From an uncultured virus (IMG/VR IMGVR_UViG_3300030099_006786) (Duplodnaviria > Heunggongvirae > Uroviricota > Caudoviricetes), in IMG/VR virus record IMGVR_UViG_3300030099_006786: DNA of 64,000 nt; one strand, given 5' to 3'. Within the stretch, counting starts at the first letter, position 1; each line of letters begins with the position of its first letter. The notes under the pieces are model-generated. The model had not been told where the DNA came from, ran no database searches, and saw nothing but the letters and a program-made list of their open reading frames with translations. Of the stretch, positions 14,419-30,378 are shown piece by piece. The translations under genes and the position numbers were made by a program.

Positions 14419-14472
14419 AATATAACACCGAAACAGGCAGAAGTCAATAGTTTAATTGTCAAGCAATTGCCA
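14419..14472 (-). promoter_or_regulatory. Composite early promoter
   Basis: TTGACT-17-TG-TATATT; boxes +15/+26. Confidence 0.85.
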
Positions 14473-14629
14473 AGAGCGTCAAATCGCCGGATCTTTCGCT
14501 TCTCGCACTCCGCGAACGGAACCAATAAATTAATATATCACATGCAAAAGCGTAAGCTCCGCGCTCAAGCACGATCCCATAACCGCCATGCATTGAATTC
14601 CTATATTTCACCAGATCACCGACTTGCAT
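14459..14629 (-). CDS. VGDLV-family small protein (56 aa, not in ORF track)
   Basis: MQVGDLVKYRNSMHGGYGIVLE...IYWF. Confidence 0.75.
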   Translation of the reverse strand: MQVGDLVKYRNSMHGGYGIVLERGAYAFACDILIYWFRSRSARSERSGDLTLLAIA

Positions 14630-14945
14630 GCATTTTCTCCGTTACATGGCGACACTTACGACGCCAACCAAAACCGGCGCATGTGCAGCCCCAGACGTGG
14701 CCGTCGTATGTTACGGTATACGTGTTGCCCTTGCTTCCTTGAACGCTCCACGTTTGAACCTCGCCCAATTTAGACGCACTTTTATAAGGCTCGTAAACCA
14801 TAACGTCTGAAATAGTGTTAAGGGTTGCCGTTTCAGGTACGGGAAGCCAAAACTGACCAGAAACCGCCCACTTTTGACCTTTAGTGTCAGTATAAAGCAT
14901 AGGCGGCATGCTTACAATTACCGGTAATTCCTCTAAATTGCTCAT
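14616..14945 (-). CDS. SWIM zinc-finger protein
   Basis: VQGSKGNTYTV...WGCTCAGFGWRRKCRH. Confidence 0.85.
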   Translation of the reverse strand: MSNLEELPVIVSMPPMLYTDTKGQKWAVSGQFWLPVPETATLNTISDVMVYEPYKSASKLGEVQTWSVQGSKGNTYTVTYDGHVWGCTCAGFGWRRKCRHVTEKMHASR

Positions 14946-15140
14946 TTATGCCTCTGCTGGTAAAATTGTCGCTACACTTAAAGTTGTGTAAGTTTCAATC
15001 TCTTGATCGCTAATGCCCGGATCGAGCATGGTTGCGTGCATCATTAGCGCGGTGATAACTGAATCCAGACCGAAAGCGGTGCGATCAAATGGTGTTAGCT
15101 GACTTTCATCGTCAGTGCGTATAAGTGGAAGGCTTAACAT
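14946..15140 (-). CDS. Hypothetical early protein
   Basis: Start moved to MLSLPLIR behind AAGGAG. Confidence 0.7.
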   Translation of the reverse strand: MLSLPLIRTDDESQLTPFDRTAFGLDSVITALMMHATMLDPGISDQEIETYTTLSVATILPAEA

Positions 15141-15162
15141 ATTTCTCCTTGGTTCATTAGTA

Positions 15163-15215
15163 AATATAACCTCGCAGTGGATAAAGTCAAGTTTAATTCT
15201 GTCAAGCACTTGTAA
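15163..15215 (-). promoter_or_regulatory. Composite early promoter
   Basis: TTGACT-16-TATATT; boxes +15 and degenerate +26. Confidence 0.75.
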
Positions 15216-15417
15216 AGGCTTCTAAAAACATTTCGTGAAACTTCAAAACTGTACCACAACCAATAAAAGCCACGTTATAGAATGATGTGTATGTTCTACT
15301 CTCATCTATTTCTTCTGGCACTGTTTCCATAATCATAGCGATCCGATGCTCAGGCATATTAGCCTGATGTGTTGTAGTTTTGACCTTGACAAGATCACCG
15401 GGCTTAAATTTGCCCAT
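15202..15417 (-). CDS. VGDLV-family small protein
   Basis: MGKFKPGDLVKVK...YNVAF...FHEMFLE. Confidence 0.75.
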   Translation of the reverse strand: MGKFKPGDLVKVKTTTHQANMPEHRIAMIMETVPEEIDESRTYTSFYNVAFIGCGTVLKFHEMFLEAFTSA

Positions 15418-15743
15418 TAAAAAGGCTTCCGTTCGCTCATCGGTGAACATTCCCACACCAGCGGGTTCATGATCACCGGGTTACCGGTTTGATACTTGGC
15501 GAGGTTCACATGACAAGAAGTTGTCATAGAATGAAAACCATTAGCAGGTGCAGTAAAGTCTGCGATGACCATAACACCGGCAGGCGTCCGTTCTCCGATC
15601 TTCAAATTGTAGCTATACAATTCCGCGCTTCCATTTGGGTAGGACACGCTTGTCAAAGAACGCCTGTGATTACGGGCACTTAGCCCATTCTGCCATGCTT
15701 TGATAACGCCATCATTATTTAATCGTGGGCCTGTAATTGTCAT
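15417..15743 (-). CDS. Hypothetical phage protein
   Basis: AGGAG RBS; LYSY...SMTTSCH. Confidence 0.75.
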   Translation of the reverse strand: MTITGPRLNNDGVIKAWQNGLSARNHRRSLTSVSYPNGSAELYSYNLKIGERTPAGVMVIADFTAPANGFHSMTTSCHVNLAKYQTGNPVIMNPLVWECSPMSERKPF

Positions 15744-15752
15744 TTTTTACTC

Positions 15753-16988
15753 CTATGAGTCTATGGCGATGATTCGCTCAGTGGTGGAAAAGTAGGGGCG
15801 AGCTGCGTAATTTTTAGTGGTCATCCACATACGTTGGCATTTACTTGGGATAGGCTTGGGTGCCATCAAGTCTGTCAGGATGATGTGACCGTCAAAATTA
15901 TGTTCATTGACGTACTTGGTGGGCGCGTTAAAGCACGTGCCGCCGCTCAATACACGCTCAGTCTTACGGGTCTGACCCTTCTTCCAAGTATATACCTTGT
16001 CCTCTGCAACTTGCGTATCGAAAGGGATCACGGTGAACTCGGCAATCTCGGCCAGCTTGTTCAATTCAGAGAAGAACGCGGTGAGCATGCCATCATCGAC
16101 AGAACCAGACTGATCGATAGAGATAGCGATCTTAGCTTGGCGACGTACACGCTTGCCGGGGTGGACCTTTGGGAATCGCTTGTTAAGACGGCGAGGGGTC
16201 GAGCGTTTGTCAGCACGTTGTGAAGTTTTAACAAAGTACCGGAGCACCTTGCGCCAGTCGATTTTAGTAGCGATACGATCCATAATATCCTGACGCATCG
16301 ACGACGACACCGTACCCCAATTGCGGGCCTTCTCAGCTTCCTCTGCTGCTTTTTTGATGGCTTCCTTCATGCGTTCGCTGGCAATCTCTTGAGTGGTGCC
16401 AGAGGCATCACCGAAGTCATCGTGTGAATCGAGAGAGTCCATGTCACCGAAGGGATCACCAGAGCCCTGACCACCTTTACCATCGCCATCTTGCTGCTGG
16501 TCCTCGCGCATTTGCTTCAACGCTTCCAGATACCACTCGTAAGTTTTGAACGGAGGCAGATCCTTAAACATACCTTCACCGGGGATGCATGCCTTCATTG
16601 GTTCCTTGCCGATGGTAGGGCCGGGGTTTGCCTCGCTTGGTAATTCGCTGGCGATATGACAATTAATAGCCAAGTCCATCGCGATGTTATCGATCCGCTT
16701 GAGTCCATCGGCAGGCTTGCGAGCAGTAACGTGCTCGAAAATCAAGTGGTAAAATTCATGTTTAAGAACACCCAGCTTGTGAGAGTCACTAAGCTGGCCC
16801 ATAAACTCAGGGTTATACATCAACTCAAATTGTGCAGTGTTAGGGTTGACACGCACACCAGCGGTAGGGATCGCAGTAGTGGCAATCTTATCAATGCGAC
16901 GAGACAGGGCAGCGAAAAACGGCTCACGCATAAGCAGGCGAGCGGTGTGCATGTTAAGGTTGAATGGCTTGTTAGTATCGTCGGACAT
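15753..16988 (-). CDS. DUF2201-type metallopeptidase + VWA domain protein
   Basis: HEFYH, NIAMDLAIN, MIDAS-like DQSGS, GGT, LTD. Confidence 0.9.
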   Translation of the reverse strand: MSDDTNKPFNLNMHTARLLMREPFFAALSRRIDKIATTAIPTAGVRVNPNTAQFELMYNPEFMGQLSDSHKLGVLKHEFYHLIFEHVTARKPADGLKRIDNIAMDLAINCHIASELPSEANPGPTIGKEPMKACIPGEGMFKDLPPFKTYEWYLEALKQMREDQQQDGDGKGGQGSGDPFGDMDSLDSHDDFGDASGTTQEIASERMKEAIKKAAEEAEKARNWGTVSSSMRQDIMDRIATKIDWRKVLRYFVKTSQRADKRSTPRRLNKRFPKVHPGKRVRRQAKIAISIDQSGSVDDGMLTAFFSELNKLAEIAEFTVIPFDTQVAEDKVYTWKKGQTRKTERVLSGGTCFNAPTKYVNEHNFDGHIILTDLMAPKPIPSKCQRMWMTTKNYAARPYFSTTERIIAIDS

Positions 16989-17010
16989 TGTTCTCTCTCC
17001 TTACATATAT

Positions 17011-17064
17011 AATATAGCACCGTAGGGGCACAAAGTCAATGGTTTAATTGTCAAGAGAATGTCA
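17011..17064 (-). promoter_or_regulatory. Composite early promoter
   Basis: TTGACT-17-TG-TATATT; boxes +15/+26. Confidence 0.85.
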
Positions 17065-17274
17065 GGGAAGATCATAATGTGCGCGCAATCTGACCTCATC
17101 TATCCAACCTTGATCGCCGTCAATGTGGAGTTTGAACCTCCACCGCTTGTTAGCTATATCCCCGTACTTGGCGCGTGCTGTTTCTTCTTTGTCAAGAATA
17201 ATAGCAGGCTTGTTATCCTGTACGCTATAAATCAAGTCGCCTATTTTTAGGCTATCAGTCCACGTCCGAGACAA
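17062..17274 (-). CDS. VGDLV-family small protein
   Basis: LKIGDLIY...AIILD. Confidence 0.75.
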   Translation of the reverse strand: MSRTWTDSLKIGDLIYSVQDNKPAIILDKEETARAKYGDIANKRWRFKLHIDGDQGWIDEVRLRAHYDLP

Positions 17275-17491
17275 TTATTAAATCTTCCTCATGGAAACGC
17301 ATGCGTTCCTCACTTTTCAACCATTTAACTTCGTACAATTTACGCTGTTGTTCAGGCTCTTTAATATCTGTGACGATCCCGACTCCGTGGGCGCGCTTAA
17401 AGCTGCGACCCAAGCCGCCGGGACCGGACAGTCTAACTATATCACCGATCTTAGGTGCCCTCAACAGTGAGCGATTAGCGGGCTTATGCAT
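17255..17491 (-). CDS. VGDLV-family small protein (YodC-like pattern)
   Basis: PKIGDIVRLSG...GIVTDI...YEVKW...FHEEDL. Confidence 0.75.
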   Translation of the reverse strand: MHKPANRSLLRAPKIGDIVRLSGPGGLGRSFKRAHGVGIVTDIKEPEQQRKLYEVKWLKSEERMRFHEEDLIIVSDVD

Positions 17492-18569
17492 CGCCCCCAC
17501 CAAGAATTTCGACAAGGTGATCACTCACTCGCACACCAGAGGCAACTTGATGCTTATGAAGTGCAACCACGTTCTCAACAATATCAGCTTCACCGAGAAC
17601 GGTCCAGAGCTTCATAGCTACCTCGGAAGGCAGTGAGATAAAGTATTCGGCCAAGTTATTAATTTGGTCGTCGGTCAATGTTTCCTTGAACACCTCGGAC
17701 GCCTCGAACTTTTCAATCATAGCAGCGTGGTCATTGATGCCCCACTTCTCAGTCTTGGCTAATTCACCACGGTCAAGAATATCCTCAACAGTGACCTGCC
17801 ACTCATACTTCTCAACGAAGTCACGGAGCGATACAGCGGCCTCGAAACCAAGGAACGCAGTCGCAAGGTTGAAAAGCATGTCACGATCGCCACCTTCATC
17901 GAATACGCCAACACCATCGGCGGTGTCGCAGTAGCGAACCCATGAGCGACGAGAAGGATAAACCTTGTTAGGCTCAAAATCACCATCATGCTCCAGATGC
18001 TTGCGGTTGTGATTAATGAAGTCCCACACTACAGAAGGCACGCGACCATTGGCCCACTTCAACCAGTCCTCAGTGGAAGGCTCCACGTCGAACACAGTCC
18101 ACCGGTCCAATTCTGCCGGGTCCATTTCACCGACCTGATACTGAGCGCCGTGCTCGCCACCGTTGACAGCGGCGACAACCAGAGTCTCAGGGTGAAGGTG
18201 CCAGCCGTTAATCTTGCGGCTATCGGTCAACTCGAAAAGACCCTGACGGACCTCTTGAGTCGCACGGTCAACCTCATCCAAGAACAGGAGAACAGGCTGC
18301 TCACAGGCTGTAACAAGCCAGTCAGGAGCGTTCCACGTGGTAGCCTTGCGGCCGTTGATAGACGTGTCGGCCGTGTCAGGCAGGCCAAGCAAGTCACCCT
18401 CAGTCATCTGAGAAGCGCGGCGCTCGACAACCGGCAGGCTGCGAGTCTCAGCAATTTGGTAAACCACCTGTGATTTACCAACACCGTGACGACCACGGAT
18501 AAGCACCGGAAGGCGCGAGTTAAGGACGTGGGGGGCGACGGTCAGGAATGTTGCGAAGTCGATAGCCAT
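17484..18569 (-). CDS. MoxR-type AAA+ ATPase
   Basis: Walker A GRHGVGKS, Walker B LLFLDE, AAVN, MDPAELDR, PSRRSW. Confidence 0.92.
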   Translation of the reverse strand: MAIDFATFLTVAPHVLNSRLPVLIRGRHGVGKSQVVYQIAETRSLPVVERRASQMTEGDLLGLPDTADTSINGRKATTWNAPDWLVTACEQPVLLFLDEVDRATQEVRQGLFELTDSRKINGWHLHPETLVVAAVNGGEHGAQYQVGEMDPAELDRWTVFDVEPSTEDWLKWANGRVPSVVWDFINHNRKHLEHDGDFEPNKVYPSRRSWVRYCDTADGVGVFDEGGDRDMLFNLATAFLGFEAAVSLRDFVEKYEWQVTVEDILDRGELAKTEKWGINDHAAMIEKFEASEVFKETLTDDQINNLAEYFISLPSEVAMKLWTVLGEADIVENVVALHKHQVASGVRVSDHLVEILGGGDA

Positions 18570-18618
18570 GATGTGATTCTCCAGTTGAGAGTGTTTTAGT
18601 TCTTTGCCTTACTCTATA

Positions 18619-18685
18619 AATATAACACCGGAATGCTTTAGAGTCAAGTTATTTATTGTCAAGCGAATGTCAAGAGATTTGTCAA
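18619..18685 (-). promoter_or_regulatory. Composite early promoter with three upstream boxes
   Basis: TTGACT-17-TG-TATATT; boxes +15/+26/+38. Confidence 0.85.
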
Positions 18686-18691
18686 TTAAGA

Positions 18692-18778
18692 TGGTAGCTG
18701 ATGCGGGACTCGAACCCGCAAGCCCATCCGGGCGACAGATTTTAAGTCTGTTGTGTATACCAATTCCACCAATCAGCC
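18692..18778 (-). tRNA. tRNA-Leu(UAA)
   Basis: Cloverleaf, ACAGA-CTTAAAA-TCTGT anticodon arm, long variable arm, TTCGAG, encoded CCA. Confidence 0.95.
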
Positions 18779-18799
18779 ATTTCATCCTCTTACTCTAAT

Positions 18800-18854
18800 A
18801 ATATAACCGCCTGACCCCCGCCTGTCAAGGCGAGAGTTGTCAGGGAAATGTCAA
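18800..18854 (-). promoter_or_regulatory. Composite early promoter (tRNA-Leu)
   Basis: TTGACA-17-TATATT; boxes +15/+26. Confidence 0.85.
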
Positions 18855-18856
18855 GC

Positions 18857-19750
18857 TCAGTTGACATTATCATAGTGCTCGGTCAATCCGAGATCCTTTA
18901 TGATTTCCTTAGTAATTCCAGATGGATACGCATAGTCCCATGCGCGCTGGACAGCATGCTTATTGCCCTTAGTTGGAAATACTTGCTTTATAGCCTTGTC
19001 AAGACTTTGCTCAGTTGGCTGGAGCCAACCCTTCGGTGGGTCGAGTGCAGGGACCAGCGAAGAAGGCGGAAGATCGTCGCCCTCGGCGGCTGCGTAACGC
19101 AGTGCGGTATCGTTAGCTTGCACTAATTTACTAATCTGATCGCGGGAAGTATATGGCGACTGGTTTGGTGCACCGAGTTTGCGCGCATCAACATGTTTGA
19201 CAATTAGAATAGGGCGGTTTGCGTGGCAGTCATCCCAAAGAACCGACTGAACATAACGCAGAGTTAGAATATCACGACGCCATTCACCGCTTAAATCGTA
19301 GCCTGTTGAGCGGATCGGAATCATCGAGCCCACACCGATACCTGTTTCACGCGCGGACTCCAACGCGGCGATGCGTATGCGACGTGTTTCCTCAATGAAA
19401 ATTTGTTTATCGACCTTGACAGCTTCACAGGTGCGGCGCGTGTGACCCTTGATGCCGCAATAACCACAAGTCACTTTCTTCATGCGTTCAGCTTTCGCTG
19501 CCTTGTTGGTGACTTTCTTGCCAGTAGCAAGGTCAATCTTGGTACGCTTGATATACTCCTGACGCTTGGCTTCAGCGCGCTCGGTATACCACTCAGCATC
19601 TTGTTCCTTTCCATCGGCGCGGGATTGTTCGGCCATAGAGATAGCGCCCTCGTACTGACTTTTGATTTGTGCTGAGAGTGATGGACACTTGCGTTTGTTG
19701 TGACCGCGTTGATAGCAATGTGAGCAGGTGACAGTACCAGACCAAGACAT
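18857..19750 (-). CDS. Protein with two CCHC zinc knuckles
   Basis: CSHCYQRGHNKRKC and CGYCGIKGHTRRTC. Confidence 0.85.
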   Translation of the reverse strand: MSWSGTVTCSHCYQRGHNKRKCPSLSAQIKSQYEGAISMAEQSRADGKEQDAEWYTERAEAKRQEYIKRTKIDLATGKKVTNKAAKAERMKKVTCGYCGIKGHTRRTCEAVKVDKQIFIEETRRIRIAALESARETGIGVGSMIPIRSTGYDLSGEWRRDILTLRYVQSVLWDDCHANRPILIVKHVDARKLGAPNQSPYTSRDQISKLVQANDTALRYAAAEGDDLPPSSLVPALDPPKGWLQPTEQSLDKAIKQVFPTKGNKHAVQRAWDYAYPSGITKEIIKDLGLTEHYDNVN

Positions 19751-19775
19751 ATAATTTTCTCCTTTCTATACTTAT

Positions 19776-19829
19776 AATATAACAACCTGACAGCAAAGGT
19801 CAAGGTAAATTATGTCAAGCGGTTGTCAA
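19776..19829 (-). promoter_or_regulatory. Composite early promoter
   Basis: TTGACC-16-TG-TATATT; boxes +15/+26. Confidence 0.8.
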
Positions 19830-19991
19830 GAGATCCACATTTTTCTCGAAACACCATTCCTTGTGACCGGGACCGAAAAGCGATAGGCCCTGTGTAGTCC
19901 ATAGAACATGGATGCCAATATCGCCGCGTACTTCAAGTATAACGCCGATTTGCTCAGTAAGAAAATGTTTAACAATATCACCTACTTGCAT
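19815..19991 (-). CDS. VGDLV-family small protein (58 aa, not in track)
   Basis: MQVGDIVKHFLTEQIGVILE...VLW...EW. Confidence 0.8.
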   Translation of the reverse strand: MQVGDIVKHFLTEQIGVILEVRGDIGIHVLWTTQGLSLFGPGHKEWCFEKNVDLLTTA

Positions 19992-20127
19992 TGACTAACT
20001 CCAATTTATCCCACTTGAAAGACTCGCCAGTGTGCAAGTGAATCCACGGTCGCGCCCCATCTTCGATGTGTACGACAATCGCCACGGTGCCATCATAAAT
20101 AATTTTAACTAAATCACCGACTTTCAT
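19978..20127 (-). CDS. VGDLV-family small protein (49 aa, not in track)
   Basis: MKVGDLVKIIYDGTVAIVV...LELVNASR. Confidence 0.8.
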   Translation of the reverse strand: MKVGDLVKIIYDGTVAIVVHIEDGARPWIHLHTGESFKWDKLELVNASR

Positions 20128-20245
20128 TTGTATTTTTCTCTCCGTTCAATTTAGACTTTATCCACATCCCGACGAATGGGGCAGACCCGGCTAAAGCAAA
20201 CAAGGCGTTCCATTCGCCATGACAATTAAACACGTGTTCGAGCAT
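20114..20245 (-). CDS. Small hydrophobic protein (43 aa, not in track)
   Basis: MLEHVFNCHGEWNALFALAG...NESR; overlaps both neighbours. Confidence 0.65.
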   Translation of the reverse strand: MLEHVFNCHGEWNALFALAGSAPFVGMWIKSKLNGEKNTNESR

Positions 20246-20396
20246 TGATCACCCTCAAGTGTTGTGGCTGAAAGGCACACACACGATTGTTACGGGTCAG
20301 CATGACACAATACAAATCGGATACTTTTAAGTATTCAACAATGATACCGGTGCCACAACTCCCCGTCAAACATCTAACTAAATCACCAACTTTCAT
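20226..20396 (-). CDS. VGDLV-family small protein (56 aa, not in track), probably leaderless
   Basis: MKVGDLVRCLTGSCGTGIIVE; ATG 6 nt after -10. Confidence 0.8.
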   Translation of the reverse strand: MKVGDLVRCLTGSCGTGIIVEYLKVSDLYCVMLTRNNRVCAFQPQHLRVINARTRV

Positions 20397-20402
20397 ATAT
20401 AT

Positions 20403-20456
20403 AATATAACCCCTCCAGCTATAATGTCAATTAAGGTTGTGTCAAGGAATTGTCAA
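20403..20456 (-). promoter_or_regulatory. Composite early promoter
   Basis: TTGACA-16-TATATT; boxes +15/+26. Confidence 0.8.
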
Positions 20457-21184: not shown

Positions 21185-21186
21185 GT

Positions 21187-21556: not shown

Positions 21557-21575
21557 ATCTCTCCCTTACACTTAT

Positions 21576-23255: not shown

Positions 23256-23256
23256 G

Positions 23257-24405
23257 CTACACGTTAGGGTAAAGTGAATCATCACGTGAGAATTGCATAA
23301 TCTTGTATTTAATGATCTCAATCTCATCGGCGTCCCACTTAACATAACGATATGAACTGGTGCGGCCGCGATTCTTATTCTTAAATACTTCATTCCACTT
23401 TGTCATTAATGCGGCTGCACCATAAGTGGCATAGTTATTTGAAGAATCAAAACATAGTTCGGTTGACCAATTAGTCAGTGCGCCAAGTTTCGGAGAACTG
23501 TCGCGAACAAGAGCCATAAATTCTTTTAGTCTCTTATATCCCTCTTTACCGCTGGGTATACGATTTTTACTGACGTGAACAAAAGCTGTAATCGCCTCCA
23601 ACGCTGAAACTGGAATTTCATCAATGCCCACAAAAGTAGTTTTGATTAAATCAATCGCCGTTGAAATGTTTGGTGCTCGTTTTTCACCCCACGCGACATC
23701 CTTGTGATCGCCGCCAACATTACGAATAATACGTTGCAGCGTTGAGATACCTTCGACAAGCGGCTTATCACTACTTTTGTTAAGGTGGTCAAAGCAAAAG
23801 CCACTTGAATTAGCAATACTCCATGTATCGCATGCCATGTTGTGACGGTTGTGACTACTATCTAAAAGCTGCTGAAGAAATTTGTCGTATGATGAAATAG
23901 ACGCATTATATTTGTCTTGAGCGTTGAAAAGACGGCGGCTATCCGCAACATCTTTCACAATGCGAATGGTCGCAGGCACCATAAATACACCATTAAGATA
24001 TGCCGCAGTACCTCGGCCACCACCATCACGGATAATAAACACATCTTCGTGAATTAAATAATCAACATCAATTGGCTGAAATTGCATTGGATCAAATTTC
24101 TTGGCAATTCCAAGAATCTTATTTTTGCGTGAACGCTCAGACAAAGCATTACGCTGGCCGTGATCCTCTCTGATCTCAGCCTTGCGAATATCGAAAAGAG
24201 TTGGTTTGTAGTTTTCGTGAAAAATACCGTCAAATGAAGGCACAACCTGTGGGCCTCTCTTTAATTTCCACTCTTCAAACTCGTTAGAGATTTCAGGGTA
24301 ATCTTGAATGTTTTGCTCGATAGTGTATCGAACCCGCTTATTGGCGGTTGCTTGTTTATACTGAGGCGTTACCTCGGACGTATATTGTGGTTTTAATTTT
24401 GGCAT
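23257..24405 (-). CDS. ParB-like N-terminal domain protein
   Basis: FDPMQFQPI...IRDGGGR..AA; AAGGAG RBS. Confidence 0.6.
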   Translation of the reverse strand: MPKLKPQYTSEVTPQYKQATANKRVRYTIEQNIQDYPEISNEFEEWKLKRGPQVVPSFDGIFHENYKPTLFDIRKAEIREDHGQRNALSERSRKNKILGIAKKFDPMQFQPIDVDYLIHEDVFIIRDGGGRGTAAYLNGVFMVPATIRIVKDVADSRRLFNAQDKYNASISSYDKFLQQLLDSSHNRHNMACDTWSIANSSGFCFDHLNKSSDKPLVEGISTLQRIIRNVGGDHKDVAWGEKRAPNISTAIDLIKTTFVGIDEIPVSALEAITAFVHVSKNRIPSGKEGYKRLKEFMALVRDSSPKLGALTNWSTELCFDSSNNYATYGAAALMTKWNEVFKNKNRGRTSSYRYVKWDADEIEIIKYKIMQFSRDDSLYPNV

Positions 24406-24490
24406 AATAATATCTCCTTTTAATCTAAATTATATAAATTGCCGACACGAAATTATATCGCGTCTGTACGAAGCTCTATCGTACTTTACT

Positions 24491-24518
24491 ATTATAACAA
24501 ATAATCATCGTTTGTCAA
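24491..24518 (-). promoter_or_regulatory. sigma70-type promoter
   Basis: TTGACA-16-TG-TATAAT. Confidence 0.75.
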
Positions 24519-24545
24519 GAAAAAATAATTTTTATTTGAAATGAA

Positions 24546-24622
24546 TGGTGGGCTCTGTGGGACTTGAACCCACGACCATGCGGTTATGAGCCGCGTGCTC
24601 TGACCAACTGAGCTAAGAGCCC
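24546..24622 (-). tRNA. tRNA-CAU, most likely Ile2 (lysidine type)
   Basis: GGGCTCTTAGCTCAG..., CTCATAA loop, TTCAAG, CCA; body resembles bacterial Ile2 rather than fMet. Confidence 0.9.
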
Positions 24623-24629
24623 TCAAAAT

Positions 24630-24800
24630 TTACCTACACAGCGGCGGCTTGGCAAACAAGTGGATACCTTCGCGTGGTTCCCAGCCATGTCTTTTAATGT
24701 AGTTTTCCTTTGCCTGTTTTCCGTCAGCACCTTCAGCAATACCTATCGCGGTATACTTTCTATTTTCAATGTCATATTCCATAATTGTGTAATCAAGCAT
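24630..24800 (-). CDS. Hypothetical protein (56 aa)
   Basis: Start moved to MLDYTIME behind AGGAG. Confidence 0.7.
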   Translation of the reverse strand: MLDYTIMEYDIENRKYTAIGIAEGADGKQAKENYIKRHGWEPREGIHLFAKPPLCR

Positions 24801-24810
24801 AATTCTCCTA

Positions 24811-25185
24811 TTAGTAAGTTGCTTCTCTCTCAATGTGTATATCAAATCCCCATCCTTGTACTTCGTTGTCATCCATTTCTTCACCGATGCGAACGAAGCG
24901 GTAAAACTCGGCGGCATCAACTTCCTTGCCCTCGATTTCAATACGCTCGGACTCGCACCAATCCAAAAAGTCAGCGATGGCGGCGATTCCTTCATACGAA
25001 TCATACCACTTGATTCCTGCCCAACGGAAAAGGAATGCACCCTTTGTGCCATCATAGTCTTTAATCAACTCATCGTGATCTGCCCAACACATTTCACGAG
25101 CCTCTGGTGATTTTGCCATTGTGACCATAAACTGAGGCATAACTTCTGGTCCGACTGCCAAGATAACCTCTGAACGATAACCCAT
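24811..25185 (-). CDS. Hypothetical phage protein
   Basis: MGYRSEV...IKWY...FVRIGEE; AAGGAG RBS. Confidence 0.8.
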   Translation of the reverse strand: MGYRSEVILAVGPEVMPQFMVTMAKSPEAREMCWADHDELIKDYDGTKGAFLFRWAGIKWYDSYEGIAAIADFLDWCESERIEIEGKEVDAAEFYRFVRIGEEMDDNEVQGWGFDIHIEREATY

Positions 25186-25208
25186 ATGTATTTTCTCCTT
25201 ACACTTAT

Positions 25209-25263
25209 AATATAGCACCCGATGGTACAATTGGCAACCCCTAATTTGTCAACTAAATGTCAA
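25209..25263 (-). promoter_or_regulatory. Composite early promoter
   Basis: TTGCCA-17-TG-TATATT; boxes +15/+26. Confidence 0.8.
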
Positions 25264-25587
25264 CGCCGGAATTGGAGCAACACCACGGGGAACCTCACCC
25301 TCGACAATTCCACCATGTTTAGCAATCACGTTGGTTACGGTTTGGACCGGTACATATCCATAGACAGTTTTTGTGGGCTTGTTAACTTCTTCGGCAAAAT
25401 CAATTAACAGTGGTTCTCTTTCACTTGGAAAACCGATCTCCACAGAAGTATACTTGTCCGCGTCATCCATACGAGGCGAACAATATGCAGTAGCATGCGC
25501 CTGTACGCTCATTTCAAAGCCGTCAGCACAAATGACCCTCTTGTTTCGGGTTGCACCAGCTTCCTTAAAAAATTCATTTACATTCAT
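25249..25587 (-). CDS. Hypothetical phage protein
   Basis: CADGFEMSVQA..YCSPR...VYGYVP. Confidence 0.8.
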   Translation of the reverse strand: MNVNEFFKEAGATRNKRVICADGFEMSVQAHATAYCSPRMDDADKYTSVEIGFPSEREPLLIDFAEEVNKPTKTVYGYVPVQTVTNVIAKHGGIVEGEVPRGVAPIPALTFS

Positions 25588-25877
25588 TTGAAATCTCCTT
25601 TCTTTACAAACTTTAAGTCATTCCTTAGAAAATAGCCATCTGTTCGATGGTGCGACCTGCCATAGCGACTGCCGGGTCCATCTTGCATCCAATTGATATA
25701 GTAAAATGTCTTTTCATTAGTTGAACACTTAATCTTATCAATCCATGGATTTTCTTCAATTCTCATAACTAAGCCTACCAATGGCTTTTTCTGTACCCAT
25801 ATCATATCACGCCAGCGCCACATATCTGCCCTTTGTAAGCAATATGACGAGAGCGTTACCAAATCACCAACTTTCAT
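25584..25877 (-). CDS. VGDLV-family protein
   Basis: Start moved to MKVGDLVTL; VGLV...YINW. Confidence 0.8.
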   Translation of the reverse strand: MKVGDLVTLSSYCLQRADMWRWRDMIWVQKKPLVGLVMRIEENPWIDKIKCSTNEKTFYYINWMQDGPGSRYGRSHHRTDGYFLRNDLKFVKKGDFK

Positions 25878-25999
25878 GTTAGACACCACAAACAGTATCC
25901 AATAACCAATGACGCAGAAACAACGCCAAGCCAACTAATAATCAAAATTGCCCTCTCTGCTCTTTCAATGTCATCTTTGAATGTATTTTTATCCTTCAC
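25874..25999 (-). CDS. 41-aa single-TM protein (not in track)
   Basis: GGAGG RBS, GTG start, ILIISWLGVVSASLVIGYCLW. Confidence 0.6.
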   Translation of the reverse strand: MKDKNTFKDDIERAERAILIISWLGVVSASLVIGYCLWCLT

Positions 26000-26168
26000 T
26001 AATCACCTCCAGCATTTTAATAAATTCAATTGTCTCATCGCCATCAAACCACTTGACCCGACAGGCGCGACGGTTATGATCTGTGTATGTTGCCTTTGGG
26101 CCTATCTCCACCACAATTCCGGTGTGCTCAGGATCATGTCTTCCATGCACTAAACTTCCTACTTTCAT
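25989..26168 (-). CDS. VGDLV-family small protein (59 aa, not in track)
   Basis: MKVGSLV...TGIVVE...RVKWFDG...LEVISEG. Confidence 0.8.
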   Translation of the reverse strand: MKVGSLVHGRHDPEHTGIVVEIGPKATYTDHNRRACRVKWFDGDETIEFIKMLEVISEG

Positions 26169-26506
26169 CCTTGAATCTCCATAGGTTGTGCGTCAATGTT
26201 ATAGCTTCGATCTGCCATTCTGTCCCAACTGATCTCAGTCCAGTCAGAAAAAACCTTCCACAACTCTTTGCTGCTCATCTTCTTCAACTTTTCATGTTCC
26301 CACTCGAACGGTTCAGTTTGTGCGCCGTCAGTCTCGGTGTACGCATAGCAATCGTTCATAACGCGCAGAGCTTCTTCTTTGCTGTCAATGCTGTGAAACT
26401 CCAGTACGTCAGTGATGCACGCTAGCGCACAACCTTTCTCAGTCATGTGAACAGATGAAAACAACTCACCCTCATAGCTGCCTTGTAGTACCCAAACTTT
26501 CATCAT
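26165..26506 (-). CDS. Hypothetical protein
   Basis: AAGGAG RBS after promoter. Confidence 0.8.
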   Translation of the reverse strand: MMKVWVLQGSYEGELFSSVHMTEKGCALACITDVLEFHSIDSKEEALRVMNDCYAYTETDGAQTEPFEWEHEKLKKMSSKELWKVFSDWTEISWDRMADRSYNIDAQPMEIQG

Positions 26507-26528
26507 GATTTTTTCTCCTTATGTATAT

Positions 26529-26573
26529 AAGATAACACAGACAATTCTTAACGTCAAGTCAAGAGAATGTCAA
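26529..26573 (-). promoter_or_regulatory. Composite promoter, +5/+16 subtype
   Basis: TTGACG-17-TG-TATCTT. Confidence 0.75.
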
Positions 26574-26777
26574 CTACCTTCCAACATTCCGTGCGTCGTG
26601 CATGCTACCCACATACTGATAGGCACCCTTATTATAGAGTGGCGCAGTGCACTTCTTCATGCGTTCGGATACTTGATGTGCGTGACTTTCACCACACTCC
26701 AAACAATGCTCATATCCAAGCGCCTTACGCTTAGGGTTAAATTCTTCACCGCAGTCAAAACATTGGGGCCAGTCCAT
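26574..26777 (-). CDS. C4 zinc-finger protein resembling the DksA/TraR finger
   Basis: Start moved to MDWPQ; CFDCGEEFNPKRKALGYEHCLEC. Confidence 0.7.
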   Translation of the reverse strand: MDWPQCFDCGEEFNPKRKALGYEHCLECGESHAHQVSERMKKCTAPLYNKGAYQYVGSMHDARNVGR

Positions 26778-26797
26778 TTTTCTCTCCTTATATACAT

Positions 26798-26841
26798 AAG
26801 ATAACACCAGCAAACCTAATAGTCAAGTCAAGAAGATGTCA
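26798..26841 (-). promoter_or_regulatory. Composite promoter, +5/+16 subtype
   Basis: TTGACT-17-TG-TATCTT. Confidence 0.75.
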
Positions 26842-27043
26842 GGTACATCACATCATAATTTTTCTCATCCACGATACATTCAACGCCATCGACCCAAACA
26901 CCCCAAAGCGCATAGTTAAACGTGCAATCGACCGGTGGATTAGGATCGGCGGGCTCCCATTCTCTTAAAACAATGGCAGGGTTTGACCAGTCATCAAGAC
27001 CGAAACCAACCGGCTTAAAAGAAATTAAATCACCGACTTTCAA
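26828..27043 (-). CDS. VGDLV-family small protein
   Basis: TTG start KVGDLI...AIVL...WGVW. Confidence 0.8.
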   Translation of the reverse strand: MKVGDLISFKPVGFGLDDWSNPAIVLREWEPADPNPPVDCTFNYALWGVWVDGVECIVDEKNYDVMYLTSS

Positions 27044-27251
27044 CGAATAACTCCAAATTCGTTACCGGAATATCAACGTAACGATTGCCAAATAAAACGG
27101 TAGCATGTAACTCAGGCTCGATTAATTTCCAATCAACAACAGTACCTAATTTATCAGTACGCCAACATTTTTTATCAACAAAGCCTGTGATGATACCAGC
27201 TTGAACATTTTTACCGCTGTTGGTTCTTTTAACCAAATCACCTATTTTCAT
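27030..27251 (-). CDS. VGDLV-family small protein
   Basis: Start moved to MKIGDLVKR; ends LELFVESR. Confidence 0.8.
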   Translation of the reverse strand: MKIGDLVKRTNSGKNVQAGIITGFVDKKCWRTDKLGTVVDWKLIEPELHATVLFGNRYVDIPVTNLELFVESR

Positions 27252-27681
27252 TTTGCTTAGTTCCTTCATATTCATATAGCCCTTGGCAATTCCATCCTGT
27301 AAACCTTTCCATATTTACAAATAAAGTTCCCTTAATCATATCAATACTGGCTGGATCACTTTTTGTGTTCCAATCCATTCTCATTTTCCACAAGCCGTCA
27401 TCGCATTCAAAAATTGCTCTTACCTCACAAGATTTTTCCTTATTGCTGACTTTGACAAGATGGCACCCAGCATTGGGATTCGGAGAAGGCACGCCATAAA
27501 TAACATTCAAAAGTGTATCTTCTAAGCTACCACATTTAGTTTCTAAAGAGTCAAATTTTACCTGATACTTGCCATCAACAATAGGCTGTGTGCATTCATA
27601 TTTAACTGTGGCCGAGTCAATTTGTTGCGTTTCGCCTCCGCATGTTAAAAGCCCTAAAATTAAAATTATTTTACTTTTCAT
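27238..27681 (-). CDS. Putative Cys-rich lipoprotein
   Basis: MKSKIILILGLLTC lipobox-like; six further Cys. Confidence 0.65.
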   Translation of the reverse strand: MKSKIILILGLLTCGGETQQIDSATVKYECTQPIVDGKYQVKFDSLETKCGSLEDTLLNVIYGVPSPNPNAGCHLVKVSNKEKSCEVRAIFECDDGLWKMRMDWNTKSDPASIDMIKGTLFVNMERFTGWNCQGLYEYEGTKQNENR

Positions 27682-27931
27682 AATATGCATTCTCTGTATT
27701 ACTATGATCAGTCAGATCAGTGATGCTTGTAACGCTTGGAAATTCCTCAGTAAGATAAGCAGCAACTTGGCCCTGAAGTGTGGCCTTGGAAGCAGCACAC
27801 CCCTGACAACCGCCACTAAGGGTGACATAAAGAACGCCGTCATCAAAATTTTCAATTGTTAAATGACCGTCGTGCCCAGCGAGTGCAGGGTTTATATATG
27901 TATCAACAAATTCTCTTATTTCGTCAATCAT
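27671..27931 (-). CDS. NifU/NfuA C-terminal Fe-S carrier domain protein
   Basis: INPALAGHDG...LSGGCQGC. Confidence 0.9.
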   Translation of the reverse strand: MIDEIREFVDTYINPALAGHDGHLTIENFDDGVLYVTLSGGCQGCAASKATLQGQVAAYLTEEFPSVTSITDLTDHSNTENAYYEK

Positions 27932-28035
27932 TTTTTATCCTTGAATGAATCATCTGTAGCAAGTTTATAAAGCCAAAACCCAAATACCAAAAAAATTGGA
28001 CCCAAAACCATTGTAAAAAAATCAATCAACAACAT
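27928..28035 (-). CDS. 35-aa single-TM peptide (not in track)
   Basis: GGAG RBS; fills gap with overlaps at both ends. Confidence 0.5.
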   Translation of the reverse strand: MLLIDFFTMVLGPIFLVFGFWLYKLATDDSFKDKK

Positions 28036-28198
28036 CACATAGCTCCAATTTCTTTGCTTGCTCTATAGTATAATGCCAATCTCCGGGTATGTCAATCCAC
28101 TTTACAATAATATAACTTTCCGTGATATTAATAATTTCGCCAGAAGCCGAATCATATTTCCACATCGGCTCCATTTTAACTTTGTCACCTATTTTCAC
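28022..28198 (-). CDS. VGDLV-family small protein
   Basis: GTG start KIGDKV...GEII...IVKW. Confidence 0.8.
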   Translation of the reverse strand: MKIGDKVKMEPMWKYDSASGEIINITESYIIVKWIDIPGDWHYTIEQAKKLELCDVVD

Positions 28199-28376
28199 CA
28201 ACAACCTCCAAAACTTGCGTATCAAACCATTCAGTTTCGCCGCTAGTAAATGTGACTTTAGCAGAATGTGTCATGTGTCCCGTTCGAGATAATTGAACAA
28301 CAACACCTAACTGAGTTACATAATCTGCAAACTCATGAGGTACTGTTTCATATTTAACAAGGTCACCGACCTTCAT
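28185..28376 (-). CDS. VGDLV-family small protein
   Basis: MKVGDLVKY...LGVVV...LEVVGENR. Confidence 0.8.
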   Translation of the reverse strand: MKVGDLVKYETVPHEFADYVTQLGVVVQLSRTGHMTHSAKVTFTSGETEWFDTQVLEVVGENR

Positions 28377-28842
28377 GTCTTTTCTTGTGCTCCAACTTCA
28401 TAAGTAAATACTTCTTATTTTCTCTAGCTTCCTTCCAAGCAGAATAAAAAATCTTAGCCGATTGTGCTTTTTCGCATGTCAATGCATCAGGCTCTTGTGG
28501 AATAATTGTACCATCATGATTATATTTTTTACCGTCGCGGTGATTTGCGTAGCGCCGGGCTCTGGTAAACCCCATGTGTAAAAATTTCTTAGCCATGTCA
28601 GCACCAACAAAATCGCCAGTATTGACATAGCCATAGAACATAGATAAAATGTTTTGACTTGATACTTGTGCTTCTCTAATTGTTTTGAATCGCCAGTATT
28701 TACAAATCGTAGATTTATAAGGCTCGCAAATTAAAACACCTTGTTGACCACGACCAATTCGGTATAATTCTGGATGCTTCATATAATCAACATCAGGATT
28801 CCATTTTTCAAAATATGATTTATCGACTTGTTGCCTAGCCAC
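28363..28842 (-). CDS. DUF4385-like protein
   Basis: YRIGRGQQGVL.EPYKS...WRFKT...DMAKKFLHMGFTRARRYANH. Confidence 0.8.
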   Translation of the reverse strand: MARQQVDKSYFEKWNPDVDYMKHPELYRIGRGQQGVLICEPYKSTICKYWRFKTIREAQVSSQNILSMFYGYVNTGDFVGADMAKKFLHMGFTRARRYANHRDGKKYNHDGTIIPQEPDALTCEKAQSAKIFYSAWKEARENKKYLLMKLEHKKRHEGR

Positions 28843-29108
28843 TACTTTTCCTTTGGAAATCTGCCTTGATTACCCATTCCGTCATAATCAACAAAATCAG
28901 TCTCAGTCTTATTATAGCTTGATTCTTTTTCACTGTCAAGTTTTTTAACTAGCAAATCTGATAGTTTTTCAATTTCTTCCATAGCTGATGCATATAAGCG
29001 CAATTTGCCGTTACGTTGTAGGTGTAGTGCTTCTGATTGCAGTCTAGCAATTTTCTTTTTTAATTTGTTAACTTCTCTGTTATGTAAAAAATCTTTGATA
29101 AATTTCAT
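28842..29108 (-). CDS. DUF6435-like helical protein
   Basis: EALHLQRNGKLRLYA. Confidence 0.6.
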   Translation of the reverse strand: MKFIKDFLHNREVNKLKKKIARLQSEALHLQRNGKLRLYASAMEEIEKLSDLLVKKLDSEKESSYNKTETDFVDYDGMGNQGRFPKEK

Positions 29109-29440
29109 TGTTTCCTCTTTGGTAAATATGGCCTTATGCCGTATGCAAAAATATAATAACCACTATCGAAAATTGTTTTAATCACAGGCAATCGAGAAAA
29201 GCAGACAGATTTCTTGAACCCCATTTTCTCATACATCAGTCTAAATGTTTCAGGGCCTTTGGTTGCTTTTTGATCAAACCAGCCAATCATTTCTTTCTCA
29301 AAATCTGCTACATTACCGTCAAAATCATTAGCACTAATGTCAATAAATTTGATGCCGCAGGCTTCTGCCCGGTTACGAATCGCACCAATTTCCAGAGAGC
29401 AGACATAACAACTTTCATCATAATAAACTTTGTCAGACAT
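29105..29440 (-). CDS. DCC1-like (DUF393) thiol-disulfide oxidoreductase
   Basis: VYYDESCYVC (DxxCxxC), FIDIS. Confidence 0.85.
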   Translation of the reverse strand: MSDKVYYDESCYVCSLEIGAIRNRAEACGIKFIDISANDFDGNVADFEKEMIGWFDQKATKGPETFRLMYEKMGFKKSVCFSRLPVIKTIFDSGYYIFAYGIRPYLPKRKQ

Positions 29441-29535
29441 TAATTTTTCATATTATCAATAATGTAAAGTGAATAAAAGAAGCCGAGAACGATAAACGCC
29501 ACAACTCCATTTACAAATACTTGATAATGCTCCAT
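29440..29535 (-). CDS. 31-aa single-TM peptide (not in track)
   Basis: AGGAG RBS. Confidence 0.55.
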   Translation of the reverse strand: MEHYQVFVNGVVAFIVLGFFYSLYIIDNMKN

Positions 29536-29543
29536 GTAAACTC

Positions 29544-29723
29544 CTATTTTTTCTTCACAGGTAAATTACTTTCTGAAAACTTTAGACCTAAACATTCTTC
29601 ACAGATTTCTGTCTCCATGATTGTTTTTCTTGACAACTCTATAATTGCACGTCTATGAAAACCAATCATGTTTAAATGTGATTGAATGCATCTATCTATT
29701 AGGTTTTTTTCGTAGTCATTCAC
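29544..29723 (-). CDS. Hypothetical protein
   Basis: GTG start behind GAGG. Confidence 0.55.
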   Translation of the reverse strand: MNDYEKNLIDRCIQSHLNMIGFHRRAIIELSRKTIMETEICEECLGLKFSESNLPVKKK

Positions 29724-29949
29724 CGGTATCTTCCTCTTGGCAAACAATCACAGCATCACGGCTTTCATGCAATTTGACAACGTAAAAAACTTTGCCTTCA
29801 TAAATCTCACATGGAAAAGCGTTAACCGGCATTACAGCTATTGAAGGCCCACCGTTAGATGCAGGGTTTGAATTTAATTCGACAGTTGCAAAATGCTCGT
29901 CGAATGAATCTACCATGCCCAATAAAACAAATGTTGTTAATACTTTCAT
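29716..29949 (-). CDS. Hypothetical protein
   Basis: Start moved to MKVLTTF (ATGA overlap). Confidence 0.7.
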   Translation of the reverse strand: MKVLTTFVLLGMVDSFDEHFATVELNSNPASNGGPSIAVMPVNAFPCEIYEGKVFYVVKLHESRDAVIVCQEEDTGE

Positions 29950-30152
29950 TGATACAACTCCAAATAAGTAATCCATTCCTCAGATATTTGCCCATCATTC
30001 CATCGAATTCTTAATCTTCGAGTATGCGTACCTTTAGACTCTACCTCAGATATAACGATACCGGGTAGTGATTTAAAAGAATCAGTATACTTTTCCCACT
30101 TAAAAGATGCTGATGGGCTTGGGATATATTTTACTAAATCACCTACTCTCAT
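29946..30152 (-). CDS. VGDLV-family small protein
   Basis: Start moved to MRVGDLVKY; GIVI...IRWNDG...EW..YLE. Confidence 0.8.
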   Translation of the reverse strand: MRVGDLVKYIPSPSASFKWEKYTDSFKSLPGIVISEVESKGTHTRRLRIRWNDGQISEEWITYLELYQ

Positions 30153-30378
30153 TTTTCTTACGCTTTTTCTTATCTTTAGCATCGGCGGTAGCCACAGGCT
30201 CAGACGAATACGACTTGAATTGAAACAACGCGAATTCGTAACCACTCTCAACATTCTGGTCAATTTGATTACGAAGATACTTTGTTTTAATAGGATTGTC
30301 AGCAGCCCAGTTCAATCCCAAATAAGCTGCTAACGGTGTCATGATGATTTTAAAAATAGTTTTCACTTTTGCCTCCAA
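30139..30378 (-). CDS. Hypothetical protein with N-terminal hydrophobic segment
   Basis: Follows promoter; ends KNESR. Confidence 0.7.
   Translation of the reverse strand: MEAKVKTIFKIIMTPLAAYLGLNWAADNPIKTKYLRNQIDQNVESGYEFALFQFKSYSSEPVATADAKDKKKRKKNESR

Follow-up and report, generated by a model that had tools for sequence, protein, structure and literature searches.

A dual-coded junction of tandem mini-genes in an uncultured marine T4-related phage and its probable use as recombination homology

The uncultured virus IMGVR_UViG_3300030099_006786 (IMG/VR; Caudoviricetes) was analysed as a stretch of 64,000 nucleotides (nt), termed the window below, which carries an array of tiny paralogous genes set head to tail on the minus strand. 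Where one of these genes runs into the next, a dual-coded sequence of about 27 nt, termed the joint, is Shine-Dalgarno sequence, start codon and upstream stop codon at once, as a preliminary description of this DNA had claimed. The joint is probably the dual-coded junction of a tandem paralog array, doubling as recombination homology. Codon usage indicates that selection on its synonymous positions maintains both the stop and the Shine-Dalgarno sequence, and alignments indicate that insertions and deletions (indels) of whole gene units between relatives end inside it.

Anatomy of the Joint

All 13 starts listed in the preliminary description lie on the minus strand and have the pattern NTG-xxx-GTN/ATA/GCC-GGT-GAY, in which NTG is followed by AAA, CAA, AAG, AGA or AGG, then by GTC, GTA, ATA or GCC, and then by GGT and GAY. 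At all 13, the upstream open reading frame (ORF), which encodes 43–159 amino acids (aa) in the +2 frame, terminates on the TGA of GGT-GAY. This stop consists of the T of GGT and the GA of GAY, and the two genes overlap by a constant 14 nt (spacing -14). The upstream proteins carry the tails NESR, NASR, HASR, SESR, SEGR, VESR, NENR, GENR and HEGR. Pattern and overlap stand as first described. The proteins of the family end in L-E-V-[IV]-[NS] and begin with M-K/Q-V-G-D-L-V.

It had also been proposed that the LEV or LEL codons of an upstream family member supply the Shine-Dalgarno word GGAG(G). This holds for 7 of the 8 joints that have a family gene upstream and fails for the start at 21806, where the word is GGAA. 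Where the upstream gene is not of the family (5 joints), the preceding bases are unconserved, and the start at 30152 lacks any Shine-Dalgarno sequence. The consensus of 323 joints from relatives is TTGGAGGT-nAT-yA-ATG-AAA-GTC-GGT-GAT-yTG-GT (about 27–33 nt), with the Shine-Dalgarno sequence GGAGGT ending 6 nt 5′ of the start.

When up to 3 mismatches are allowed, the window contains 17 copies of the 15-mer ATGAAAGTCGGTGAT compared to 2.5 expected from shuffles, and none of 100 shuffles reaches 17. Its best 14 matches are confined to the minus strand, from 14.6 to 30.2 kb. The window contains 16 minus-strand ORFs that begin with M-x-[VIA]-G-D, and 13 of them have the 14-nt joint. The other three (20667, 20396 and 25877) lack the 14-nt overlap and were absent from the earlier list. 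The 13 joints and these three starts are as follows.

14615..14642, minus strand: junction from the SWIM-like gene 14616-14945, which is not of the family, to family gene 14459-14629; start ATG-CAA-GTC-GGT-GAT, with GGAG 10 nt 5′ of the ATG
19977..20004, minus strand: junction from family gene 19978-20127 to family gene 19815-19991; TTGGAGTT..ATG-CAA-GTA-GGT-GAT
20113..20140, minus strand: junction from the 43-aa ORF 20114-20245 to family gene 19978-20127
20829..20856, minus strand: junction from family gene 20830-21027 to family gene 20664-20843; the pair is 63% identical
21013..21040, minus strand: junction from family gene 21014-21190 to family gene 20830-21027
21373..21400, minus strand: junction from family gene 21374-21556 to family gene 21187-21387; GTG start
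21792..21819, minus strand: junction from family gene 21793-21951 to family gene 21627-21806; GGAA replaces GGAG
21937..21964, minus strand: junction from family gene 21938-22147 to family gene 21793-21951; GTG-AGG-GCC-GGT-GAT
27029..27056, minus strand: junction from family gene 27030-27251 to family gene 26828-27043; TTG start
27237..27264, minus strand: junction from the lipoprotein-like gene 27238-27690 to family gene 27030-27251; unconserved upstream bases
28184..28211, minus strand: junction from family gene 28185-28376 to family gene 28022-28198; GTG start
28362..28389, minus strand: junction from the DUF4385 gene 28363-28842 to family gene 28185-28376
30138..30165, minus strand: junction from the 79-aa ORF 30139-30378 to family gene 29946-30152; no Shine-Dalgarno sequence upstream
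20653..20667, minus strand: family start with the same 15-mer, in a 4-nt ATGA overlap with family gene 20664-20843
20382..20396, minus strand: motif start without overlap; first gene after the promoter-like site 20430-20401, with a gap of 34 nt
25863..25877, minus strand: motif start 111 nt past family gene 25989-26168, without the 14-nt overlap

The start at 25877 may alternatively form an ATGA overlap with a doubtful 41-aa ORF. For five genes of the family, the starts given by the longest ORF (21075, 25934, 27275, 28225 and 30263) lie 8–37 codons too far upstream; the starts based on homology are 21027, 25877, 27251, 28198 and 30152.

The Joint Across Relatives

Related loci were gathered by way of the neighbouring MoxR-like ATPase gene, and the comparison set comprises 80 loci (L001-L080; 1.26 Mb). 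The relatives share 65–80% DNA identity with the window, and their small genes are heavily reshuffled. Across IMG/VR, the joint pattern recurs in no fewer than 154 stretches.

The 80 loci contain 502 unique ORFs of 40–130 aa that start with M-x-[VIA]-G-D-[LIV]-[VI], all on the strand of the ATPase gene. The -14 overlap is present at 317 of these genes and the ATGA (-4) overlap at 69, while 94 have no upstream ORF of at least 40 aa reading into them and 22 have junctions of other types. With a crude gene caller, the -14 spacing is found in 246 of 360 pairs in which the downstream gene is a family member. The other 2247 gene pairs favour -4 (238), followed by -1 (87), -8 (73), -14 (64) and -11 (57), and 34 of those 64 pairs at -14 are GGT+RR variants of the family. 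This concentration at pairs with a family gene downstream, where elsewhere -4 leads, means that the -14 spacing is a trait of the family rather than a general property of the genome. Where the upstream gene is also of the family, the overlap is -14 in 282 of 346.

The -14 joints also differ in their translation signals. GTG is the start codon at 150 of 338 of them (44%) compared to 8 of 64 and 9 of 100 in the other junction classes, and a Shine-Dalgarno-like word precedes 276 of 338 (82%) compared to 28 of 64 and 51 of 100. When paralogs duplicate or recombine in register, the joint is passed on with them.

Selection on Synonymous Positions

The preliminary description had named the use of GGT at Gly4 as a check against codon usage. 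In the window, all 16 of the Gly4 codons are GGT, compared to 491 of 1233 background glycines (40%), with a probability of about 4e-7 if the window genes are independent. Background GGT in the relatives amounts to 34% of glycines and 42% of glycines preceding Asp. Some family members have an N-terminal extension, so that the V-G-D-L-V strand is internal. Among members of the relatives verified with a profile hidden Markov model (HMM), GGT is found in 475 of 532 N-terminal motifs (89%) compared to 65 of 179 internal motifs (36%) (Fisher 1.9e-42, with rows that are not independent). It is used in 323 of 338 members where the upstream ORF lies in the +2 frame, in 51 of 64 of the ATGA class and in 76 of 100 of the remaining class, and in none of 9 members whose residue 5 cannot form a stop.

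Other positions of the joint are similarly biased. At Val3, GTT, with which the upstream protein would end in Trp, occurs in only 4 of 338 joints compared to 43% of background valines before Gly; GTC and GTA, which give the upstream protein a C-terminal Arg, dominate. The Asp5 codons GAT and GAC occur in a ratio of 281:57 at joints, compared to a background of 56%. Variants with Asn5 or Ser5 read GGT-AAY or GGT-AGY, and these provide the upstream stop TAA or TAG at the same -14 place; the -14 overlap is present in 6 of 16 Asn5 and 5 of 15 Ser5 members. The Glu of the C-terminal L-E-V is encoded by GAG in 168 of 175 genes before a -14 joint, compared to 40 of 55 other ends and a background of 57%. 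Moreover, the nearby synonymous positions -5, -2, +18 and +21 are variable, and therefore ongoing gene conversion is not the explanation for the codon conservation.

Indels and Their Ends

A further check named earlier was whether breakpoints fall in the junction. At a resolution of about 20 nt, both ends lie in joints for 27 of 169 unique indels, and joints make up 2.8% of bases. One end lies in a joint in another 23 events, both ends lie in promoter cassettes in 8, and one end lies in a promoter cassette in 21. The flanking matches (high-scoring segment pairs) overlap mostly by 14–38 nt at the joint indels, compared to mostly less than 10 nt elsewhere. Of the BLAST match ends no more than 120 nt from a family start, 370 of 428 left ends fall at -20 to +9 and 381 of 630 right ends at -10 to +29.

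The clearest single case comes from two relatives, L003 and L052, which share stretches of 4.2 kb at 99.1% identity and 13.3 kb at 99.98%. Their difference is one unit of 176 nt, a 52-aa family gene, between perfect 20-nt direct repeats, and the repeat is the first 20 nt of two family genes. In addition, the window has an insertion of about 254 nt (20245..20004; ORF 20245 and member 20127) compared to L037, L059 and L001, and this insertion ends in two joints. Small genes also shift position among relatives, as the window segments 20667-20390 and 22428-22014 match beyond the ATPase gene in L046.

One metagenome contig (run X1) fuses 21931 to 20648, joint to joint, in a changed order, so that the first ~20 nt of member 20667 are joined to the body of member 21951 with the junction in the common motif; it is a single contig, and its short side is 44 nt. 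Loose contig ends in four marine DNA runs, 22 of 24 listed lying within about 23 nt of a family start, were not counted as breakpoint evidence because their matching sides are 20–44 nt and many are paired before and behind the start about 30 nt apart; they may represent the motif in other genes.

The Mini-protein Family

A profile search finds 24 members of the family in the window, none of them on the plus strand, in the span from 10.3 to 30.2 kb. A complete relative of 195 kb has 30 members, all inside 23 kb. The region of the window that holds them is as follows.

10297..30152, minus strand: hyperplastic region with all 24 HMM-verified family members (E <= 0.01)

The proteins are 50–80 aa long and align as M-K-V-G-D-L-V ... 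G-I-V ... V-x-W-x-x-G ... L-E-V-V, with a pairwise identity among paralogs of about 25%. The adjacent genes 21027 and 20843, at 63% identity, are a recent tandem duplicate. None of 25 family-like window genes matched Pfam, and only 1 of the 25 had a PHROGs match, which is weak and to a group of unknown function; no named family was found. All 254 database relatives of the family are unnamed metagenome proteins, and a search of 5.8 billion proteins together with the ESM Atlas gave no name or function. A small gene at 42184-42390, which begins M-Q-Q-G-D-L-I (GGT-GAT) and follows the GroEL gene with a 1-nt overlap, may be an outlying member.

An AlphaFold2 model based on 125 sequences (pLDDT 83.7) has five strands, at residues 6–9, 20–27, 40–45, 50–54 and 58–62, and the predicted fold is a small SH3-like β-barrel. 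The best Foldseek matches in the PDB are PetP, YorP, HspQ and KOW, Tudor and SH3 domains, with TM scores of 0.6–0.7 and E-values of only 0.017 or weaker; the best E-value, 0.017, goes with TM scores of 0.66–0.70. Like PetP (7r0w_V, 2n5u), YorP of SPbeta (2heq, B. subtilis), HspQ (5ycq) and the KOW and Tudor/PWWP domains, the family protein is modelled as a five-stranded barrel of about 60 aa that opens with a G-D-x-V strand. The E-values are weak, and no function can be transferred to the family. The genes sit behind host-type promoters among accessory genes, and for this reason the proteins may have early host-takeover or anti-defence accessory functions.

Promoter Cassettes and the Main Array

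A repeated promoter cassette heads each short operon. It consists of TTGACx, 17 nt, TG-TATATT, and then TATAGAAAGGA and the start. On the minus strand, copies are found at 13134-13155, 13383-13404, 13807-13828, 14403-14424 and 19760-19781. Promoter-like sites lie at 13178, 13427, 13851, 14447, 17039, 18647, 18828, 19803, 20430, 22463, 23240, 24518, 25237, 28095 and 28939, with a further one at a chain head at 21604. The 13 joints have no promoter-like sites, which are found at chain heads (22463, 21604, 20430, 19803 and others). When translated, the cassette yields spurious ‘VLYYKYRKEK’ peptides. In relatives, the cassettes have up to three TTGACA boxes, an extended -10 element and a ribosome-binding site, and they bound a separate class of indels, much like promoter-early stem-loop (PeSL) cassettes.

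The main array and its chains are as follows.

19815..22428, minus strand: main array, with three promoter-headed chains of mini-genes
22463-22435, minus strand: promoter-like site of chain 1, followed by 22428, 22147, 21951 and 21806
21604-21576, minus strand: promoter-like site of chain 2, followed by 21556, 21387, 21190, 21027, 20843 and 20667
20430-20401, minus strand: promoter-like site of chain 3, followed by 20396, 20245, 20127 and 19991

The genes of the main array are linked by 14-nt overlaps (8), by 4-nt overlaps (3, at 22147, 21190 and 20667) and by one 20-nt overlap (at 20245).

Unrelated Upstream Genes

The preliminary description held that unrelated genes end in the same way as family members. 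In the window, the non-family genes upstream of a joint are the SWIM-like gene 14616-14945, the 43-aa ORF 20114-20245, the lipoprotein-like gene 27238-27690, the DUF4385 gene 28363-28842 and the ORF 30139-30378. They do stop on the TGA of the joint, but they share only the first codons of the downstream gene, and the upstream half of the joint is absent. Their own 5′ ends have spacings of 0, 1 and 20 nt and no joint. The Pfam match of the DUF4385 gene (E 5.9e-53) ends at residue 155 of 159, so that the overlap holds only a 4-aa tail. The SWIM-like gene has a visible CxC...CxH pattern and no Pfam SWIM match at E <= 0.01.

Among 118 unique joints of relatives with a non-family gene upstream, the spacing is -14 in 37, -4 in 29, -1 in 14 and 0 in 5, and the rest are gaps. 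The non-family genes thus show no preference for -14: 37 of 118 have this overlap compared to 43 of 118 with -4 or -1, and the two out-of-frame options are about equal, as reading-frame chance predicts. An unrelated upstream gene would simply run to the first in-frame stop within the family start, which lies at +4 in one frame and at +14 in the other.

Non-family genes at -14 joints amount to 58 instances in 28 clusters, several of the small clusters being probably spurious ORFs. The largest cluster, with 17 loci, is the ortholog of the SWIM-like gene, and its junction with the family is one conserved, inherited syntenic pair and not repeated capture. In L001, the ortholog of the window gene 29716-29976 terminates within a family joint; in L044 and L046, as in the window, its stop lies 8–32 nt inside a different gene. 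Running into the first stop of the next gene is thus a general habit here.

Proposed Mechanism and Alternatives

Copies of the family follow one another head to tail, and sigma70-like promoter cassettes precede the short operons that they form. In the proposed mechanism, the stop in the joint would keep the upstream frame from crossing the start region of the next gene, and the close stop together with a well-spaced Shine-Dalgarno sequence would hand ribosomes from gene to gene, either by Shine-Dalgarno-assisted re-initiation or by fresh initiation. The frequent GTG starts at -14 joints (44% compared to 9–12% elsewhere) fit coupling-aided initiation. Between paralogs that are about 25% identical, the joint would be the sole stretch of 15–20 or more identical bases. 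As the only long identity in such diverged paralogs, it may serve as a substrate for unequal homologous recombination or replication slippage, and RecA-independent slippage occurs between close direct repeats. Recombination of the RecA/UvsX type, or slippage, at joints would expand, contract and reorder the array. The ‘integrase-free expandable array’ of the preliminary description is no more than a tandem paralog array undergoing unequal recombination or slippage of the ordinary kind.

Several observations weigh against this mechanism. GGT is still used in 76–80% of members where TGA is not used as a stop, so that the stop alone cannot account for the bias. No shared RNA hairpin was found at the 13 joints (z-scores +1.24 to -2.15, at or below -1.9 at 2 of 13). 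In 90 of the 169 indels neither end lies in a joint or a promoter cassette, so that most indels occur without a joint, and BLAST match ends near family starts are few, with 428 of 14271 left ends and 630 of 15144 right ends within 120 nt. Breakpoints at gene borders are also expected from selection alone, and a mechanism is unprovable from sequence. According to a review of translational coupling, coupled pairs are enriched at spacings of -4, -1 and -8, and coupling drops steeply from -4 to -25 nt (PMC12548453); a longer overlap thus weakens coupling, and the -14 spacing is not expected from selection for coupling alone. Moreover, all relatives are metagenome assemblies, in which repeats may mislead assemblers, shared descent inflates counts across relatives, and gene starts and ORFs were called heuristically.

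The preliminary description favoured an adaptive, integron-like device, in which any gene could be inserted, duplicated or swapped at the joint by short homology and be expressed at once. The indels with both ends in joints, including the one between near-identical contigs, would fit such a device, as would the differing positions of small genes in L046, the reordered X1 contig with its 44-nt short side, and the 58 instances of a non-family gene upstream. However, the claim of a general plug-in cassette is not supported by the comparison of the non-family genes themselves. Their -14 overlaps are about as frequent as frame chance predicts, they have neither the upstream half of the joint nor a joint at their own 5′ ends, and the biggest of their clusters is a single syntenic pair. 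Replacement-type differences with all four ends in joints number only 2 of 354, in a crude and uninformative measure taken from adjacent BLAST matches, most of which are diverged parts of larger genes. The joint has no integrase or attC-like partner, and the other class of indels is bounded by promoter cassettes and not by joints. This explanation is therefore regarded as unlikely. At the other extreme, the joint could be a passive by-product, merely copied by tandem duplication, with unselected bases and no role in recombination. It is true that family-to-family joints dominate, that the window contains a recent tandem duplicate, and that any upstream ORF has to end at the first stop it meets. 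Such copying does not explain why Gly4 is GGT in 89–96% compared to 36% for the internal motif, why GAG reaches 96% over a background of 57%, why GTT is avoided, or why the Asn and Ser variants retain a stop, all this in paralogs of low identity whose flanking synonymous sites vary; indel ends also coincide with the longest shared repeat. A passive origin of this kind is improbable.

Conservation of about 27 nt at about two-thirds of family starts, and the persistence of GGT where TGA is not a stop, could also point to an operator, which would bind a RegA-like translational repressor or other RNA-binding protein, or form an RNA structure, and so co-regulate the family. The 13 joints have no consistent fold, and conservation follows the stop and the Shine-Dalgarno function rather than the sequence, since the change of Asp to Asn or Ser alters the bases and retains the stop. 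In addition, sites beyond the dual-coded part vary, and no candidate regulator is found among the window proteins with Pfam or PHROGs. The operator is given slightly less credence even than passive copying. Least probable is a programmed +1 frameshift or readthrough at CGG-TGA that would fuse neighbouring mini-proteins into multi-domain chains. The upstream frame does lie one base behind the downstream frame, and a Shine-Dalgarno sequence upstream of a weak TGA stop is loosely reminiscent of prfB. However, there is no slippery codon, as CGG or AGG cannot re-pair in +1, and TGA-T, a stronger termination context than TGA-C, is preferred 281 to 57. Frameshift fusion was rejected for lack of a slippery site. 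Recoding of TGA was likewise ruled out, as table 11 leaves ORFs as long as 1152 aa open and no suppressor transfer RNA (tRNA) is found among the five tRNAs of the window.

Comparison with Known Systems

Among known systems, the PeSL cassette of T4-type phages (Arbiol et al. 2010, PMC2839356; Comeau et al. 2014, PMC4122927) comes closest. Like the joint, the PeSL is a short repeated expression signal spread across hyperplastic DNA of T4-related phages. Gene insertions, deletions and replacements end at it, as indels do at the joint, and it has been proposed as a recombination substrate. The phage clade studied here also has true promoter cassettes at other indel ends. Unlike the PeSL, the joint is wholly coding and dual-coded by two genes. 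It carries translation signals (Shine-Dalgarno sequence, start and stop) with no promoter, terminator or stem-loop, and it is tied to one protein family, whereas the PeSL is gene-independent, has a strong sigma70-like early promoter beside a stem-loop terminator, and forms excised mini-circles. The joint is thus a coding-sequence variant of PeSL-type shuffling, and there is no evidence for general capture of foreign genes.

The joint also resembles translationally coupled overlapping pairs (reviewed in Brown & Wade 2025, PMC12548453). Such pairs are co-directional, with a stop/start overlap and a Shine-Dalgarno sequence inside the upstream gene, and they include NTGA (-4), TGATG/TAATG (-1) and -8 pairs; the rest of the phage favours the usual -4. 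Unlike these canonical pairs, the joint has a spacing of -14, which is not among the enriched spacings and for which weaker coupling is reported there, and a conserved protein motif holds this spacing constant through hundreds of repeats.

Two further comparisons concern the array as a whole. Integron cassettes likewise form a promoterless array of small genes behind an upstream promoter, with gain and loss by gene units. Unlike integrons, the array has no integrase and no attC or attI site: no integrase family was found among the 88 window ORFs with Pfam, and the joint is coding sequence and not an attC hairpin. Recombination would be driven by homology, and foreign genes make no special use of the joint. 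The ‘gene accordions’ of poxviruses are tandem paralog arrays that expand or contract by unequal recombination or slippage. Like them, the mini-gene array has head-to-tail paralogs, a copy number that varies between near-identical genomes, and ends in repeated homology. However, the paralogs here are old and highly diverged, at about 25% identity, and the usable homology is only the joint of about 20–30 nt, which owes its persistence to dual-coding selection and not to recent duplication. No published description of the joint was found in the literature on the motif, coupling, paralogs and hyperplastic regions, supplements aside.

The Phage and Its Genomic Setting

At least 135 related stretches are found in IMG/VR, several of them within complete records of 187–196 kb. 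A T4-type Gp23 capsid protein is encoded in 3 of 3 complete relatives and a RecA-family protein, elsewhere in the genome, in 5 of 5. The lineage is therefore that of an uncultured marine T4-related phage of about 195 kb, and the window is its hyperplastic early region. The earlier statement that RecA is encoded does not apply to the window, where no RecA match is found among the 88 ORFs with Pfam; it applies to the complete relatives. No close cultured phage was found: megablast of the window matched tRNA-sized stretches only, and tblastn with the ATPase and with PolIII-alpha gave less than 32% identity.

A Pfam scan of the 88 window ORFs identifies a MoxR-like ATPase (17484-18569), a DUF2201 protein (15753-16988), GroEL (42390-43967) and PolIII-alpha (52664-56092), as well as ClpP, a class II ribonucleotide reductase and a DnaB-like helicase. 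The genes for the MoxR-like AAA ATPase and the DUF2201 metallopeptidase/VWA protein (15753-18569) lie midway in the hyperplastic region as a conserved pair, present in all 80 related loci used. Long ORFs lie on the minus strand, with 48,357 nt of ORFs of at least 100 aa on the minus strand compared to 7,098 nt on the plus strand.

The five tRNA genes of the window are scattered among the mini-genes (18692-18778, 24546-24622, 30911-30987, 30990-31085 and 31949-32025). Two adjoining ones (30911-30987 and 30990-31085) are tRNA-Asn(GTT) genes; the length of one, 96 nt, may be due to an insertion, an intron or a mis-call. A deoxyhypusine-synthase-family protein (Pfam DS, 5.5e-42; 527-1480) and an S-adenosylmethionine decarboxylase (7.7e-30; 32767-33153) are encoded as polyamine-related auxiliary genes. 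The G+C content is 46–50% at about 12–20 kb (12001-20000) compared to 31–42% across most of the window, so the richest part of the array region differs in composition from the core genes.

Implications

The few codons of the joint serve four purposes at once, as they encode two protein ends, form a ribosome site with a start, supply a stop and provide recombination homology. Selection on it is measurable at synonymous sites. The joint accounts for how the accessory region in an abundant group of uncultured ocean phages gains, loses and reorders tiny genes without a dedicated recombinase site. For annotation, it serves as a warning that longest-ORF calling misplaces the starts of at least 5 family genes. 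The -14 spacing also offers a natural test bed for how far back a terminating ribosome reaches to a start.

A bolder proposal is put forward tentatively and is more doubtful than not. The protein ends of the family may be a self-propagating linker, a coding analogue of PeSL and attC that terminates, re-initiates and supplies homology, and that is selected for evolvability as well as expression. If so, each mini-gene would be a portable, auto-expressed cassette, and the array would be a homology-driven shuffling engine that occasionally traps foreign genes.

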